From the IMG/VR virus record IMGVR_UViG_2541047708_000006: a stretch of 58,959 bases of DNA; one strand, given 5' to 3'. The notes beneath the pieces were generated by a model. The model was not told the origin of the DNA, ran no database searches, and saw only the letters and a program-made list of their open reading frames with translations. Shown one piece after another: positions 1,229 to 57,451 of this stretch; positions within the stretch are counted from its first letter, which is position 1; every line of letters starts with the position of its first letter. The position numbers and the translations under genes are program-made. The DNA is from a virus. Taxonomy: Duplodnaviria > Heunggongvirae > Uroviricota > Caudoviricetes.

Positions 1229-2149
1229 ATGAACCAACTGCAAGAAATCATTCAGATACTAAGTACTGGTGATGAAGGCACAACAAATGCTCTCATAAAA
1301 ACGAAGATCCTTCTTTTCTCTATCGGGAAAAAGGAGCTTGCTGCATGGGTAAATCATGAGATAAACGGTTATCCTGATTCAGTTTCCCTTCCAGATTATA
1401 GAATTGTTGGCACAAGAATTCTTGCAGATCTGAATAACGGCGTTCGCCTATATAGAGCTTTTCCGTTACCGATTGGTTATCTAAGTGAAGATGACTATGA
1501 AGATGCTACAACCAGTAATGTGAGGCTTTCAATCAGTCAAATCGAAGAACTAGTGACCAATGCTGGTGATAGCCATGCTCTTCAGCAGCCAATTCCTTTA
1601 GATTACGCGTTAGTTAAGTACTGCAAAGGTATCGATAAAGGCTATGAGTTAACACGCTGTTATAAAGAGATCGCACTACATAACTTTACTTCCATCTTAA
1701 CTCAGGTCAGGTCACGGCTACTTGATTTTATACTTGAACTTTCTGATCAAGTTTCTGAAATACCAGATGAGAAAAACATGACAGAAAAACTTAAAAATAT
1801 CGACACGTCTTCATTATTCCATAACTCAATTTTTGGAGACAATACTGTCATAAACTTCGGAAATGAAAACTCATTTTCTGTGAATAACCACGTCGTAAAA
1901 AACGACACTGAGTCATTAAAAGAGTTTCTCTCAGCTCAGGGGTTCCCTAAATCTGATGTTAACGATTTAGAAATTGCTATTGGTGAAGATGGCCCGATAG
2001 CTAACAAACGTGGTGAATATGGTCAATCTGTTAGTAAATGGTTGGCAAATATTGCGAGTAAAGCAGCCCATGGTACTTTGGGCATAGGAATAGCTGCTGC
2101 AACTCAAGCAGCTACAGCGGCTCTGAAAAAATACTACGGTCTATCATAA
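1229..2149 (+). CDS. Hypothetical AT-rich cargo protein (306 aa), possibly abortive-infection-like
   Basis: Long ORF with ATG 14 bp after terminator; AT-rich codon usage unlike core genes; no motif I can assign firmly. Confidence 0.7.
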   Translation: MNQLQEIIQILSTGDEGTTNALIKTKILLFSIGKKELAAWVNHEINGYPDSVSLPDYRIVGTRILADLNNGVRLYRAFPLPIGYLSEDDYEDATTSNVRLSISQIEELVTNAGDSHALQQPIPLDYALVKYCKGIDKGYELTRCYKEIALHNFTSILTQVRSRLLDFILELSDQVSEIPDEKNMTEKLKNIDTSSLFHNSIFGDNTVINFGNENSFSVNNHVVKNDTESLKEFLSAQGFPKSDVNDLEIAIGEDGPIANKRGEYGQSVSKWLANIASKAAHGTLGIGIAAATQAATAALKKYYGLS

Positions 2150-2240: not shown

Positions 2241-2407
2241 TGATTGTTTTTTATGCGGAGAAATACCGGGGAATAATTGGGGTAAAACACCTTTAGGCTA
2301 TTCACTTAGCCTACCACCATCAAAATCTTTCCGAATGTATCCATCTCTTTTTTCTTATGCAGCTAAAACGAAGTCTTGATACTGTTTATTTACACAGATA
2401 AGAATAA

Positions 2408-2427
2408 TACTGTCTACAAACGCAGTA
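2408..2427 (+). promoter_or_regulatory. Putative LexA (SOS) box
   Basis: TACTGTCTACAAACGCAGTA fits TACTG-N10-CAGTA; 14 bp upstream of dinI-like ATG at 2441. Confidence 0.55.
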
Positions 2428-2440
2428 CAAAAGAAGTGTT

Positions 2441-2688
2441 ATGCGTATTGAGATCTCCATAGCCAAAGACAAAATGACCAAATGCCAAACGGTGCTGTGG
2501 ATGCGTTAAAGGAAGAATTAACTCGACGCATCAGTAAGCGTTATGACGATGTAGAGGTGATCGTAAAAGCCACCAGCAACGATGGCCTTTCTGTTACGCG
2601 CACCGCCGATAAAGATTCAGCTAAAACTTTTGTTCAGGAAACTCTGAAAGATACCTGGGAGTCTGCTGACGAGTGGTTTGTTCACTAA
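2441..2688 (+). pseudogene. dinI-like gene with apparent -1 frameshift after codon 14 (ORF track shows only 2482-2688)
   Basis: ATG at 2441 encodes [14 protein letters not shown] (DinI N-terminus) then stops; the rest of the DinI-like protein (PNGAVDAL...[10 protein letters not shown]) continues in another frame from 2482; shift lies in an A-run. Confidence 0.55.
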
Positions 2689-3296
2689 TTAACACGTAAA
2701 ATCGGTAACGGCTGGAAATCATTCAATACTCGCACTATCGGAAGTTCACCAGCCAACCGCAGCACGTTCTTGCATACGACGTGTCTGCGGTTTTTCAACC
2801 ATTTAGATACAGCACTCTCATCGCATTCATTCTTCCGCATTAAAGTATATATGACCATATCACCTTAATATTTTTCTTCTTCAGATAAAAATTGTTATCT
2901 ATGTATACTTTTAAACCGAATCCGTGTAGAGTCTCTACCTAAGTTAGTTCACAGTTACCCCTTCAGTTTGCGCCATTAACCTCCTGACTTTTGCCGCTAT
3001 CTGTAAGCATTCCTGTATACCTGAAACTACAGGGGTCATCTACGAACTTTAAGAACACCCAGGATAAAAATTGTCAACTATATTATATATAACACCATAC
3101 TAATTCGAGGTTATATGAACAGCATACTGATAATCACTTCACTACTTATCATATTCAGCATTTTTGGTCATGCTCTAATAAAATTAGGGATTGGCATATC
3201 CAATAACCCGGACAAAACCGATGTATAAGTCAACATATCCTTAATCAGACATACAATATTGCAATGAAAACCAATAATATTTTAAGGAATATCTTC

Positions 3297-3530
3297 ATGA
3301 AATCAAAAGACACCCTAAAGTGGTTCCCTGCGCAGCTTCCTGAAGTCAGAATTATCCTGGGAGATGCTGTCGTGGAAGTAGCAAAACAGGGAAGACCTAT
3401 CAATACCAGAACATTGCTTGATTACATTGAAGGAAACATAAAGAAAAAGTCATGGCTGGATAACAAAGAATTATTACAAACAGCGATATCAGTTCTTAAA
3501 GACAACCAAAATTTAAATGGTAAAGTGTAA
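3297..3530 (+). CDS. YdfK/YnaE-like small protein
   Basis: MKSKDTLKWFPAQLPEVRIILGDAVVEV... resembles recalled prophage proteins YdfK/YnaE that sit next to pin in Qin/Rac; RBS AAGGAA before ATG 3297. Confidence 0.7.
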   Translation: MKSKDTLKWFPAQLPEVRIILGDAVVEVAKQGRPINTRTLLDYIEGNIKKKSWLDNKELLQTAISVLKDNQNLNGKV

Positions 3531-3904
3531 CCCCCCTGAAAAATAATTTTTTAATGCATTAAAAAATATCAACAACTACGTTATCCCTCAACAACCTACT
3601 TTTTTACCATTTTTCCACTTTAACAACATTTTGCTCCACTTTTCCACGACCAAACAACTTGAAATCTGGTTAAAATAACATACAACACTATTATTCGTCT
3701 TCCTCGAGTCCGCCCGGATTTCGAAAAACAAACCGAGTTAAAGCCATTTTTCAAAAAATCGATTTTGGGTTACACCAAAATTACGGGACTGCATCCGAAT
3801 TCGTTTATTTTCGAACGTATACATACAAATATGTACAATAATAAGCGAAATAATTTTTGGATATGCATTATGATATGTACACCAATTTCGTATAGAGTCT
3901 CACT

Positions 3905-4495
3905 ATGTCTCGAATTTTTGCTTACTGTCGGATATCAACTCTGGATCAGACCACCGAAAATCAACGCCGGGAAATCGAAAGTGCAGGTTTTAAAATCAAA
4001 CCTCAGCAAATAATCGAAGAACACATTAGCGGCTCAGCAGCAACCAGTGAGCGTCCTGGTTTTAACCGGTTGCTTGCTCGCCTGAAATGTGGTGATCAAT
4101 TGATTGTGACAAAACTGGATCGCCTTGGTTGTAATGCAATGGATATCAGGAAAACAGTGGAACAACTGACCGAAACAGGTATCAGAGTGCATTGCTTAGC
4201 ATTGGGGGGCATTGACCTGACCAGTCCAACAGGAAAAATGATGATGCAAGTAATTTCAGCAGTCGCTGAATTTGAACGAGACCTTTTACTTGAACGCACT
4301 CATTCCGGGATAGTAAGAGCCCGGGGCGCAGGGAAACGTTTTGGTCGACCACCTGTGTTAAATGAAGAACAGAAACAGGTGGTATTCGAACGAATTAAGT
4401 CAGGTGTAAGTATAAGTGCCATTGCCCGGGAATTCAAAACCTCGCGGCAAACCATTTTAAGAGCCAAAGCAAAACTTCAGACACCTGACATATAA
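3905..4495 (+). CDS. pin: Serine recombinase, DNA invertase (Pin/Gin/Hin family)
   Basis: 196 aa; N-terminal catalytic serine motif YCRISTLDQ; C-terminal HTH; adjacent to tail fibre genes. Confidence 0.9.
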
Positions 4496-4722
4496 AAAAT
4501 AATCTCGGTGTGAGATGCTTTACGTCTTCCAAGCCCCCTTCCTTGCCGTAAATGGAAAGATACATCTAATTATAGAATTTATATGTTTTACCCTACGGCA
4601 GTGCTGGCCATTCAATATCCTGTGCAGTTGACGTATCAACACGGTTCAGCAACACCCGATACTTTTTCCAGGCTTCCAGCAACGGGGTTTCTTCCTCCGT
4701 TGCATATACAGCTCACCTTTTT

Positions 4723-38906: not shown

Positions 38907-39138
38907 TAAGCAAAAAAGCTCCCGAAGGAGCCTTCATTTTCACTTTCTTAAATCTAACGACAGATGGCTAACATTTAAGTATTGTGAAATATTATCAAAT
39001 GTAATCATCATTGATTTACAAAAGATACATTTTGCCCCGAAAGGATTTCTGTCAGAAACATCAAAAGATGATGTTCTATACTGAGAACCATGGCAACACG
39101 GGCATCTAAAGTGAATATGGTTTGTAATATTTTCTACC

Positions 39139-39351
39139 TCAAAGTGCCACTACATGAACAGCTGCAGGGCCTTTAGGTCCGTTCTCAATACCAAATTCGA
39201 CTTCCTGATTCTCAGTTAACGTTTTGAAATCGTTGCTCTGAATAGCTGAGAAATGCACAAACACATCTTTGCTACCATCTTTCGGCGTGATGAAACCAAA
39301 ACCTTTTTCAGGGTTAAACCATTTCACTAAACCAGTCATTTTGTTAGACAT
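39139..39351 (-). CDS. Cold-shock protein (CspA family)
   Basis: [19 protein letters not shown]...[11 protein letters not shown] motifs. Confidence 0.9.
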
Positions 39352-39714
39352 CATTATTACCTTTTGAAGAAGTTAGCCCTTGGGCAGAATGGTCCGAAAA
39401 AAAATATCAGAGAGAAAAACCAACAAGAAAATCTCAAGAGGTACAAATAATAAAATTATAACAATGACTGCTTCAGATAATTTTGTAACAAACCAGAACA
39501 CCATTAACGCATGATTAACCAACCATAGCAAGGATTACTTTTGTAAAGAAAAACACACGAATGAAACAATAGCTTTATTTATTAATAAAACGTGTCATTC
39601 TGTCTAATGACCTTTTATCTTACCCTTAAGATTTCAAGGATTTTGACTCATGGAAGAGTCCTTTTTATTTAAATTTCACATTCAGCGCTAAAAATAATCC
39701 GATTTAATATTAAT

Positions 39715-42312: not shown

Positions 42313-42587
42313 GTGGTACTTTTTGTGGGAGTCATCCACTTACGCACTTTGTTTTGCTATGCCAGCAGTTAGCTTCTGCTGTAAAACTATTCATGCAGCA
42401 AACCTGCACTTCACCACAATGGTTAGCATACTTTTCCTGATTAAGTTATTGCCAAATATGCTGGCCATTGTTTCATGTATTGGACCTCCTTACTATTTAT
42501 TAAAGAGATCCAATATTCACCACTCTGTCTGTATCTCCACTCAGGCATCAGCCTTCTTCGTTATCGTATACAGACAAACTATGAATT

Positions 42588-42803
42588 TTAATCAGTAATT
42601 ATGACATTTGCTGCTGCAGGACCTTTAGCACCACTCTCTACAGAGAAGGTAACCTTTTGACCTTCAAATAAGGTTCGAAAATTATCATTCTGAATCGCAG
42701 AAAAATGCACAAACACATCTTTACTACCATCAACAGGAGAAATAAAGCCAAAACCTTTATCAGCGTTAAACCATTTTACTAAACCAGTCATTTTATTTGA
42801 CAT
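42588..42803 (-). CDS. Cold-shock protein (CspA family)
   Basis: [21 protein letters not shown]... Confidence 0.9.
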
Positions 42804-43103
42804 TCTACATTCCTTAACTTGAGCCTTTCGGCATAAATGGCTTGTATAACAGAAACGACTTCGTACTTAATTGGAGAGACTCAAAGAAGGAATAAGTGAA
42901 TAACACCTGAAATGAGAACTGCTTTAGTAAACTACTTCGTATATCGTCTGTTCTTCAAACCGACGCAATCATTAACGCATAGTTGAACATATGAAGCAAT
43001 GTTTATTTTAGACATCCAGCCATCTTCAACCCCATCAAAAAACTATAGCTTTCTTCAGGAACGTGTGTATAGTGCGCCCAGTTATCAGTATTAAGGAATT
43101 TTT

Positions 43104-48789: not shown

Positions 48790-49043
48790 GCGTTAGTTTC
48801 TCCACAACCAGAAGCAATCGACGCCACGACGCCCGGAGCTGCACACTCGCGGGCGTCATTACTTTCTGAAATGCAAAAAATTTTGTAGACAAGTGCTGCA
48901 TGCTCCTGCAGCTTCGAAATTGAGAGATACAGCTCGTCGTTAATTGCTGTCTTCTCATGCGGTTCCACTACACCGTCTTCGATTGCTGAACGAATCTGTT
49001 TTGAATAACTGCCGATCTCTACTTTCCAGTGATGCTTACCCAC
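48786..49043 (-). CDS. Hypothetical protein (cII position)
   Basis: 85 aa ORF directly downstream of cro-like gene. Confidence 0.5.
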
Positions 49044-49046
49044 GGT

Positions 49047-49295
49047 TCACCTCCTGTTCCTGTGGTTTAAACCCATTCTGGTTTTGGCTAGATTGAAAAC
49101 GTGCCGGATAAAGAATTTGCATTTCGCTGACTTCACCATTAAAAAATTGGCTAAACGTTCTGCAAGCTCGATAGATGGAATCTGCTCCAGCCTCTCAATA
49201 CGACTCAATGTCGCTGGATTGACTTGAACACCCGCAGCAACATGCTGCAAAGTGAAACCATGCGCCTTACGCACATTTCGTAATGGTGATTGCAT
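49047..49295 (-). CDS. cro: Cro-like HTH regulator
   Basis: 82 aa XRE-type HTH (GFTLQHVAAGVQVNPATLSRIE), divergent from CI gene. Confidence 0.75.
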   Translation of the reverse strand: MQSPLRNVRKAHGFTLQHVAAGVQVNPATLSRIERLEQIPSIELAERLANFLMVKSAKCKFFIRHVFNLAKTRMGLNHRNRR

Positions 49296-49392
49296 ATACC
49301 CTCCAAATATTGCGCGTTATGCATGTTATTTCACGCAATTATTTTGCGCAAGTTGATTTGCTTATCACGCAATAAAGAAATGTAATAAACGC
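49296..49392. promoter_or_regulatory. Divergent CI/Cro operator-promoter region (oR-like)
   Basis: 97 bp AT-rich intergenic with repeated TTGCGC/GCGCAA half-sites. Confidence 0.5.
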
Positions 49393-50085
49393 ATGAACAT
49401 AGGAAACCGAGTCAGACAACTTCGCCAAGCGAAGAACATGAAAATCGCCGATCTCGCTGAAGCAATAGGAGTAGATGCGGCGAACATCTCGCGCTTAGAA
49501 ACGGGTAAGCAAAAACAATTTACCGAACAAACACTGAGTAATATTGCCAAGAGCTTAGGTGTTGATATTGCTGATCTCTTTACCTCTGCCCTCAAAAGTA
49601 ATACTGTATATAAAAACAGTAATAATGAGGATGTTGCGCAGGTGAAGGATGTGTTCCGTATTGAAATGCTGGATATCAGTGCCAGTGCGGGAAATGGCCT
49701 TATCCAGGGCGGTGATGTCATTGATGTGATTCATGCCATCGAATACAGAACTGATAATGCTGTATCAATGTTCGGCGGACGACCGGCCAATCACATCAAA
49801 GTTATCAACGTTCGTGGGGACAGTATGTGTCCAACCATTGAGCCAGGAGATCTCATCTTCGTTGATGTCAGCATCAATCAGTTTGATGGTGATGGTATAT
49901 ATGTCTTTGGTTTTGATGACAAAATATACGTTAAAAGACTTCAAATGATTCCTGACAAACTGCTGGTGATTTCTGATAACCAGATTTACCGTGAATGGGG
50001 AATTACTAGCGAAAACGAACACCGATTCATGGTCTTTGGAAAGGTCTTAATCAGTCAGTCGCAAACCCTTAAGAGACATAATTAA
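49393..50085 (+). CDS. cI: CI-type repressor (HTH plus S24/LexA-like peptidase domain)
   Basis: N-terminal HTH; C-terminal VRGDSM serine motif and later Lys; 230 aa. Confidence 0.9.
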   Translation: MNIGNRVRQLRQAKNMKIADLAEAIGVDAANISRLETGKQKQFTEQTLSNIAKSLGVDIADLFTSALKSNTVYKNSNNEDVAQVKDVFRIEMLDISASAGNGLIQGGDVIDVIHAIEYRTDNAVSMFGGRPANHIKVINVRGDSMCPTIEPGDLIFVDVSINQFDGDGIYVFGFDDKIYVKRLQMIPDKLLVISDNQIYREWGITSENEHRFMVFGKVLISQSQTLKRHN

Positions 50086-50104
50086 CCTCAATATCCCATC
50101 CATC

Positions 50105-50127
50105 GGCCACTGAAAGGTGGCTTTTTA
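50105..50127 (+). terminator. Terminator after cI
   Basis: GCCAC-TGAAAG-GTGGC then T5. Confidence 0.6.
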
Positions 50128-50149
50128 TTACCCATCATTTTGCATATTT

Positions 50150-50186
50150 CGCAAATGCCACTTGCATATCTCGCAATTTAATTTTA
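50150..50186. promoter_or_regulatory. Operator-like direct repeats (TTGCATATTTCGCAA / TTGCATATCTCGCAA), candidate oL
   Basis: Two 15 bp near-identical units with TTGC...GCAA ends. Confidence 0.45.
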
Positions 50187-50351
50187 TCTTTTGTTCCAGA
50201 CCAACTACAGGATTACAACAAAATCTGGTTGCAACACGGTGCACGGTGCATGTGTCGTAAGCGGTCAGTAAATGTCAAAAACGAACAGGCAGGACGCCCA
50301 CGAAGTAGCCGCCTGGGGCATATGAAGTCCAGGATGATTCGTTAGCAACAA

Positions 50352-57272: not shown

Positions 57273-57451
57273 CGGGTTCAACTCCCGCCAGCTCCACCAA
57301 TCATGATTGGACGGTGTAAGGACTACACCAACAAAAACAGGAAGTTATAAGTCTCAGCAGGACACCGACCAGACGGTGAGGAGACAAAAAAGGATACGCA
57401 ACGGAGTCGCGACTCCCTATGACATTAAAGCCCGCTGATGCGGGCTTTTTT
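57273..57451 (+). repeat. Right copy of direct repeat: partial ssrA 3' end (57273-57299) plus downstream region; prophage attR
   Basis: CGGGTTCAACTCCCGCCAGCTCCACCA then sequence paralleling 1061-1215 with scattered mismatches. Confidence 0.8.
57427..57451 (+). terminator. Rho-independent terminator (duplicate of ssrA terminator)
   Basis: AAGCCCGC-TGA-TGCGGGCTT plus T-run. Confidence 0.6.

Follow-up and report, generated by a model that had tools for sequence, protein, structure and literature searches.

Positions 2376-2688 of the window (the whole stretch of DNA analyzed, 58,959 nucleotides) hold a dinI-like gene that lies behind predicted LexA boxes and whose reading frame is broken within a short run of A residues. 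Can this gene still make a DinI-like protein, or has it been lost, and if so, how did the rest of its coding sequence come to look so well preserved? The original prediction allowed three readings of the break: a pseudogene, a sequencing error or a slippage-prone site. We address these readings through the structure of the gene and its promoter, its distribution among sequenced genomes and its position in the prophage that carries it.

A dinI-like gene split over two reading frames

The dinI-like pseudogene occupies positions 2441-2688 on the plus strand and carries the RefSeq label 'DinI-like family protein, frameshifted' in C 237-04 (N7L43_RS06815), CFT073 (C_RS14945) and EC190759. The ancestral start codon, ATG 2441, opens a truncated ORF of 22 codons on the plus strand (2441-2509), which encodes 14 DinI residues followed by eight out-of-frame codons and ends at a TAA (2507-2509). 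The other part of the gene, 68 codons that correspond to Met15 to His82 of the intact protein, is in the -1 frame of the same strand (2482-2688), ends at a TAA at 2686-2688 and matches the Pfam DinI family. This is the arrangement that had been proposed, with a DinI N-terminus running into a stop and the rest of the protein continuing from 2482 in another frame.

We aligned the window with four intact alleles, from the prophage at ssrA in EDL933, the MFDS1006657 prophage beside prfC, and phages cdtI and mEp460, all of which are annotated as genes of 249 nt encoding 82 aa. The intact alleles read AAA GA(N) AAA ATG ACT AAA ATG CCA AAC GGT (N-terminus MRIEICIAK(E/K)KMTKMPNGAV), whereas the window reads GAC AAA ATG ACC AAA TGC CAA ACG G. 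At the lesion itself, ACT AAA ATG CCA in the intact alleles corresponds to ACC AAA TGC C here: one A is gone, leaving a run of three A residues (A3; 2480-2482, plus strand) where the intact alleles have four (A4), and a T>C change adjoins the deleted base (ACTAAAATG to ACC-AAATG). The break thus does fall within the A-run, as had been thought, and because of the missing A the frame that starts at ATG 2441 runs into a stop after codon 22, and the following part of the gene falls into the -1 frame. ATG 2482 encodes the native Met15, and the 68-codon ORF is therefore nothing more than the rest of the gene.

The same comparison locates the genuine start. Intact homologues are 82 aa long, start at the upstream ATG behind a GAGG Shine-Dalgarno sequence and begin with MRIE. 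Chromosomal DinI (PDB 1GHH) aligns from residue 1 (MRIEVTIAK), and both the NCBIfam and the PHROG profiles include this N-terminal segment, so the MRIE start of the original prediction is real. In addition to the lost A, the window allele has a degraded Shine-Dalgarno sequence: the energy of pairing with the anti-Shine-Dalgarno sequence is -6.0 to -6.3 kcal/mol for the GAGG of the intact single-ORF genes and -1.6 kcal/mol for the AAGAAG of the frameshift lineage. ATG 2482 has no Shine-Dalgarno sequence (-0.9 kcal/mol), and the values for this internal ATG range from -0.9 to -2.9 kcal/mol across alleles.

Membership of the DinI family is clear from profile searches. Against Pfam DinI (PF06183), the 68-aa ORF scores 71.6 bits, above the cutoff of 24.2, and covers the profile from position 1 to 63 of 63. 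Its match to PHROG 189 ('RecA filament binding protein DinI') has an E-value of 3.6e-25, and that of the frame-repaired protein is 2.5e-30. Chromosomal DinI (1GHH; RecA-DinI complex, 7YWA) aligns with the window protein over residues 1-79 (E = 5e-13), and an N-terminal MRIE(V/I)xIAK is common to chromosomal DinI and the repaired protein. Against the equivalog model NCBIfam NF007893, which has a cutoff of 111 bits, the 82-aa protein obtained by repairing the frame reaches 73.1 bits and the 68-aa ORF 58.8 bits; at 73.1 bits, below the cutoff, the gene is a paralogue of chromosomal dinI, not its orthologue. Both genes are LexA-regulated (the window gene by predicted boxes); unlike chromosomal dinI, the window gene is prophage-borne and inactivated. 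A single ORF of about 80 aa opening with MRIExxIAK is absent from the locus, where frame 0 covers 2441-2509 and frame -1 covers 2482-2688. As the gene is split over two frames, we class it as a DinI-like family pseudogene and not as a functional member.

The codons that remain in the -1 frame include those expected to matter for RecA binding. In DinI, L13, L21, W71, W77 and F78 form the pocket for F203 of RecA, and E24, E69 and D76 make electrostatic contacts with RecA (Gao et al., PMC9926225). In the alignment with 1GHH, L21, E24, W71, W77 and F78 are identical in the window protein, and the replacements of L13 by M, E69 by D and D76 by E are conservative; the counterparts of L13, L21 and E24 are M15, L23 and E26. 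Judged from this alignment, all residues that correspond to the RecA contacts of DinI are encoded within 2482-2688.

Upstream of the gene, a consensus scan detected a sole promoter-like site, a predicted sigma-70 promoter on the plus strand at 2376-2405 (TTGATA at 2376-2381, an 18-nt spacer and AAGAAT at 2400-2405); the annotation of phage mEp460 has a promoter at the homologous position. Two LexA boxes, graded by their mismatches to the consensus, accompany it on the same strand. LexA box 1, TACTGTTTATTTACACAGAT (2380-2399), which had escaped the original prediction, has an exact CTGT-N8-ACAG core, occupies the promoter spacer and is invariant in its CTGT and ACAG columns across 10 alleles. 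LexA box 2, TACTGTCTACAAACGCAGTA (2408-2427), is the box that had been noticed ahead of ATG 2441. It matches TACTG-N10-CAGTA, is conserved across alleles, begins 3 nt after the -10 element and ends 13 nt before the ATG. This pattern occurs twice in the 59-kb window against 0.02 occurrences expected by chance, and box 2 is therefore not a chance match. Relative to the box of the intact lambdoid alleles, TACTGTATACAAACACAGTA, it has two substitutions that are specific to the frameshift lineage and keep CTG-N10-CAG. Overall, LexA boxes of the CTG(T) type overlap the predicted promoter, and their core columns are invariant among the 10 alleles, as expected of a gene of the SOS regulon.

Distribution and decay of the frameshift haplotype

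We searched for the lesion in complete E. coli genomes. A 40-mer spanning it (2452-2491) was found at 100% identity in 239 of 5,426 genomes, with one copy in each; carriers include four CFT073 assemblies, UTI89, S88, APEC IMT5155, BEN2908 and the type strain ATCC 11775. The deletion is linked to a distinctive haplotype, consisting of the adjacent T>C change, Ser6 in place of Cys6, AAGAAG in place of GAGG and the two substitutions in LexA box 2, and this linkage is incompatible with a random base-calling error. The promoter haplotype was present in 248 genomes, and searching for it also found APEC O1 and HS. Nine of the 248 have the promoter haplotype without the frameshift 40-mer; the one of these that was fetched has an IS3 inside the gene. 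Every promoter-haplotype copy that was fetched is inactivated, and PGAP annotates the gene as 'frameshifted' in every fetched carrier where it is still annotated.

No intact ancestor or revertant of this haplotype was found in the 5,426 E. coli genomes, and a variable-gap pattern scan of 185,579 species representatives also gave no match to one. A query with A4 restored (ACCAAAATG) recovered the same 239 genomes, all at 97.6% identity, which corresponds to the gap, and none with the A in place; thus, no member of the haplotype has an 'ON' tract length. When the 185,579 species representatives were scanned at the protein level, just four loci came up, each of them in frame and from Escherichia or Shigella. 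The full 321-nt query matched 3,521 places in 1,884 genomes; most of 60 evenly spaced matches span one base more than the query, which indicates the extra A, and all eight fetched alleles from outside the lineage are uninterrupted and in frame. In the phage collection, the frameshift 40-mer matched no record, and the best matches are intact alleles with at most 94% identity. The haplotype, together with a stop at Trp79, was also observed on a 44.6-kb circular plasmid record, pZ1323HEC0010-3, which could be a phage-plasmid or an excised prophage.

Downstream of the lesion, the frameshift haplotype is paired with at least five different 3' states. In the type to which the window and CFT073 belong (six records), the 3' part is identical to that of an intact allele. 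In the proL-site type (for example, EC23-1020 and 51008369SK1), it has six synonymous and no non-synonymous differences. The UTI89 type, found in 174 genomes, differs by 14 synonymous and 14 non-synonymous changes and carries two TGA codons in frame (Ser to stop and Trp73 to stop). Further replacements and a Trp79 to TGA change are seen in E. coli HS and pZ1323HEC0010-3, which are given as examples, and the red-fox isolate NZ_LR883965.1, a single example, has an IS3 after codon 5. This IS3-family element (locus ~470-866) struck an allele that was already dead and counts as a second, independent hit. Two TGA stops thus interrupt the downstream (-1) frame in 174 of the 239 carriers, and the presence of secondary lesions in most carriers indicates that this frame is not maintained by selection. 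The frameshift is the shared founding lesion, and most of its descendants have gained independent secondary lesions.

The preserved 3' part of the window allele has a different history from the part that precedes the lesion. Positions 2482-2700 are nucleotide-identical to the intact MFDS1006657 allele (WP_001217539.1), with neither synonymous nor non-synonymous differences. MFDS1006657 also shares the next 2 kb, which carries ynaM/ynfT, ydfK and a pin-type recombinase gene, and is 97.9% identical to the window over 2376-4704. On the 5' side of the lesion, the window matches the ends of proL-type prophages back to a tRNA-Pro fragment at 2150-2198. Two synonymous variants just past the lesion, GGC and GAC (C125 and C134), occur only in the frameshift lineage (222 genomes) and are absent from the window; they may predate the deletion. 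The simplest reading of these patterns is a recombination joint between 2482 and 2493, which would have joined an inactive 5' module to the 3' portion of a functional allele. This recombination history is drawn from a handful of fetched alleles and k-mer counts. Continued selection on the downstream frame, to which the six synonymous and no non-synonymous differences of the proL-site type might point, was considered and rejected, as the 3' identity points to recombination, the lineage-confined variants may predate the deletion and most carriers have nonsense codons. On this reading of the 3' part of the window allele, the synonymous-only pattern is not evidence of function, and we attribute it to divergence predating the deletion.

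Prophage setting and relation to known systems

The dinI-like cassette (2376-2688) sits at the left end of a lambdoid prophage in an ssrA island of an E. coli chromosome. An ARAGORN and Rfam scan of the window places ssrA (tmRNA) at 698-1060, and the 26-nt 3' end of this gene (1035-1060) is repeated exactly, in direct orientation, at 57274-57299; the interval between the two copies is thus an ssrA-bounded island. This composite island measures ~56 kb. By homology to the CFT073 annotation, it contains a Qin/lambda-like prophage with tail, head, lysis, Q, replication, cro/cI and int genes. The cassette adjoins tail-fibre and pin genes, and the genes annotated 3' of it are ynaM/ynfT, ydfK and the pin-type recombinase gene. 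Over the 4,921 nt around the gene, C 237-04 has no mismatches to the window, EC190759 has 25 and CFT073 has hundreds. Positions 2380-2700 are 100% identical in six records: the four CFT073 assemblies, C 237-04 (O2:K2:H1) and EC190759. The prophage interior is mosaic relative to CFT073, and its immunity region (~49018-50280) has been replaced.

Between ssrA and the dinI promoter lie several further elements. The 3' half of a tRNA-Pro gene (proL), with ACCA changed to ACAA, was recognized on the plus strand at 2150-2198 by alignment with the ends of proL-integrated prophages. ARAGORN called no tRNA at these positions, and an exact 26-mer derived from proL has a single match in the window. The fragment sits directly after the stop codon of an AbiTii-family ORF, 180 nt 5' of the dinI promoter. 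In strains with a related prophage at proL, the same sequence is the true proL 3' end; in UTI89, the fragment stands alone behind a different gene. Going by these alignments, it is a putative remnant of an attachment core of the proL type that accompanies the frameshifted dinI haplotype, and it looks like the relic attP of a proL-type phage that now resides at ssrA. A terminator-like hairpin followed by a T-run, detected by consensus scan on the plus strand at 2210-2237, lies 5' of the dinI promoter and is kept in all frameshift-lineage alleles. The AbiTii-family ORF itself (1229-2149, plus strand) lies between ssrA and the prophage end, encodes 306 aa with a match to an abortive-infection family (PF18864, 116 bits) and is a 'hypothetical protein' in RefSeq. 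In EDL933, this gene is absent and the dinI cassette begins only ~270 nt after ssrA.

An Rfam scan of the whole window gave no match at the dinI locus; its only matches were tmRNA and two cspA thermoregulators (RF01766). The latter are full-length, on the minus strand at 39093-39509 and 42525-42964 (107 and 156 bits), and both precede prophage cold-shock genes, which is usual in Qin-like prophages. A perfect consensus LexA box, TACTGTATATAAAAACAGTA, was observed at 49602-49621, inside the plus-strand ORF 49393-50085 that encodes a CI-like S24 repressor, in the linker between the helix-turn-helix and the Ala-Gly cleavage site. This cI allele belongs to the phage SfII type (99.4%). mEp460 and Stx2a_WGPS2 (93%) as well as Salmonella phage F1055 (77%) have kept the box; its flanks vary, with a 3-nt indel directly after the box in F1055. 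A simple scan found no consensus promoter at the cI-internal box, and an in-frame GTG preceded by GAGGA lies ~20 nt downstream of it.

Many lambdoid prophages of E. coli have such a cassette, in intact form, at their att-proximal (tail-fibre) end; these intact versions share with the window this position as well as the promoter and two LexA boxes. The window cassette is 92-95% identical at the nucleotide level to those of phage cdtI (gp30, YP_001272543.1), mEp460 (gp21, YP_007112095.1) and EDL933 (WP_001217542.1), and its 68 C-terminal codons are identical or nearly identical to those of intact lambdoid phage genes.

The dinI homologues of Gifsy-1, -2 and -3 in Salmonella likewise follow immediately on a LexA box and a terminator-like hairpin. 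The Gifsy homologue comes first in a LexA-controlled operon that encodes an antirepressor as well; its LexA control and SOS induction have been demonstrated experimentally, and non-polar deletion of the Gifsy dinI homologues did not change induction significantly (PMC3121763; PMC8072944). Loss of such a gene is thus tolerable. Unlike in Gifsy, no antirepressor or irsA homologue is annotated 3' of the window gene, a comparison made on the annotated genes, which lie beyond the 426-nt gap at 2689-3114. Because this prophage encodes a CI-like S24 repressor, Gifsy-style antirepressor-based induction is not implied. Another relative, Tum of phage 186, is an antirepressor fused to a DinI-like C-terminal half (PMC3121763). 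In the PHROG 189 profile (151 positions), the DinI part lies at positions 71-149. Tum and the window gene both have a phage-borne, LexA-controlled DinI-like module; unlike Tum, the window gene has no N-terminal antirepressor half and is stand-alone and broken.

Origin of the split gene and its meaning

Our combined findings are best explained, with a probability of almost nine in ten (0.88), by a genuine inherited pseudogene of an SOS-controlled prophage dinI-like gene, in which a haplotype with a founding lesion spread by recombination and then decayed. An intact gene would be kept off by LexA bound at both operators that overlie the promoter, and DNA damage would derepress it through RecA-stimulated cleavage of LexA. 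The 82-aa product would be expected from homology to bind RecA filaments as DinI does and to modulate RecA-dependent cleavage; a phage-encoded RecA modulator of this kind could, speculatively, tune cleavage of the CI-like S24 repressor. In the lineage seen here, one A would have been lost from the A4 run at codons 14/15, with a T>C change at the neighbouring base, placing the 68 presumed RecA-binding codons in the -1 frame behind an ATG that has no Shine-Dalgarno sequence. The resulting haplotype, which combines the proL-att relic, a promoter with a weakened LexA box 2, a weakened Shine-Dalgarno sequence and the frameshift, would then have spread among prophages by recombination, and most of its carriers would since have acquired further inactivating mutations.

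A sequencing or assembly error, with a genome that really has A4 and an intact gene, can practically be dismissed. Single-base miscalls in homopolymers are a common artefact and the rest of the gene is flawless, but the run is just 3-4 bases long, and the lesion is tied to the adjacent T>C change and to a distinctive promoter and Shine-Dalgarno haplotype. The identical lesion in 239 complete genomes from many laboratories, among them four CFT073 assemblies, excludes such an error, and the secondary lesions downstream in most carriers show that it is old. We also see very little room for recoding or switching, in which -1 frameshifting or transcriptional slippage would restore the protein or the A-run would be phase-variable. 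The shift needed is indeed -1, the break is within the A-run, and the frames overlap over 2452-2509, bounded by the stops at 2449-2451 (-1 frame) and 2507-2509 (0 frame). Yet the codons in 2450-2509, read directly, include no zero-frame X_XXZ_ZZN or Z_ZZN (slippery motifs as defined in PMC4066793), with a C preceding every AAA codon. The RNA at 2430-2560 has a minimum free energy of -25.7 kcal/mol against a shuffle mean of -24.75 kcal/mol (z = -0.31), and thus no stimulatory structure. Nor is the shift conserved, as all eight non-lineage alleles are in frame and most sampled copies have the extra base, and the downstream stops in 174 carriers would make recoding pointless. Phase variation calls for a long homopolymer, and the tract here is A3; tracts known to slip are far longer, and an alternative tract length was found in none of the 239 copies. 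Of the three readings first offered for the break, the pseudogene therefore stands, and the sequencing error and the slippage-prone site do not.

It is somewhat harder to set aside a hypomorph, although we consider it unlikely: a 68-aa, N-terminally truncated DinI translated from ATG 2482 by internal initiation or re-initiation, which would keep the acidic C-terminal helix and bind RecA. The ORF at 2482-2688 is intact and spans the whole Pfam DinI domain (1-63 of 63), and the counterparts of L13, L21, E24, E69, W71, D76, W77 and F78 of DinI all lie inside it. The predicted LexA-controlled promoter is kept in 248 genomes, and the proL-type alleles show only synonymous differences (six against none). 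However, ATG 2482 lacks a Shine-Dalgarno sequence, and the upstream ORF runs across this start before ending 25 nt further downstream. The missing MRIExxIAK segment is part of NCBIfam (positions 1-12), PHROG 189 and 1GHH, and 174 of the 239 carriers have two stops in the frame, with a Trp79 stop or an IS3 in others. Distinctly improbable, too, is a regulatory variant, in which the conserved double-LexA promoter would fire on DNA damage and a 68-aa DinI from ATG 2482, short of the N-terminal strand but with all RecA-contact residues, would alter RecA modulation in ExPEC lineages such as CFT073, or the promoter would by now mainly drive ynaM-ydfK-pin. Under the preferred reading of an inherited pseudogene, the intact 68-codon remainder with its native Met15 might still yield a trace of truncated product.

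The lesion is correctly called but ordinary, having already been flagged by public annotation as 'frameshifted' in RefSeq, and in itself it adds no new biology. It does show that a prophage dinI-like gene can be done without: ~4% of complete E. coli genomes have lost it, among them those of the model strains CFT073, UTI89 and HS and of the type strain. The lesion also marks a prophage-end haplotype that recombines, and it illustrates that a pristine-looking ORF behind a frameshift can come from mosaic recombination and not from selection.
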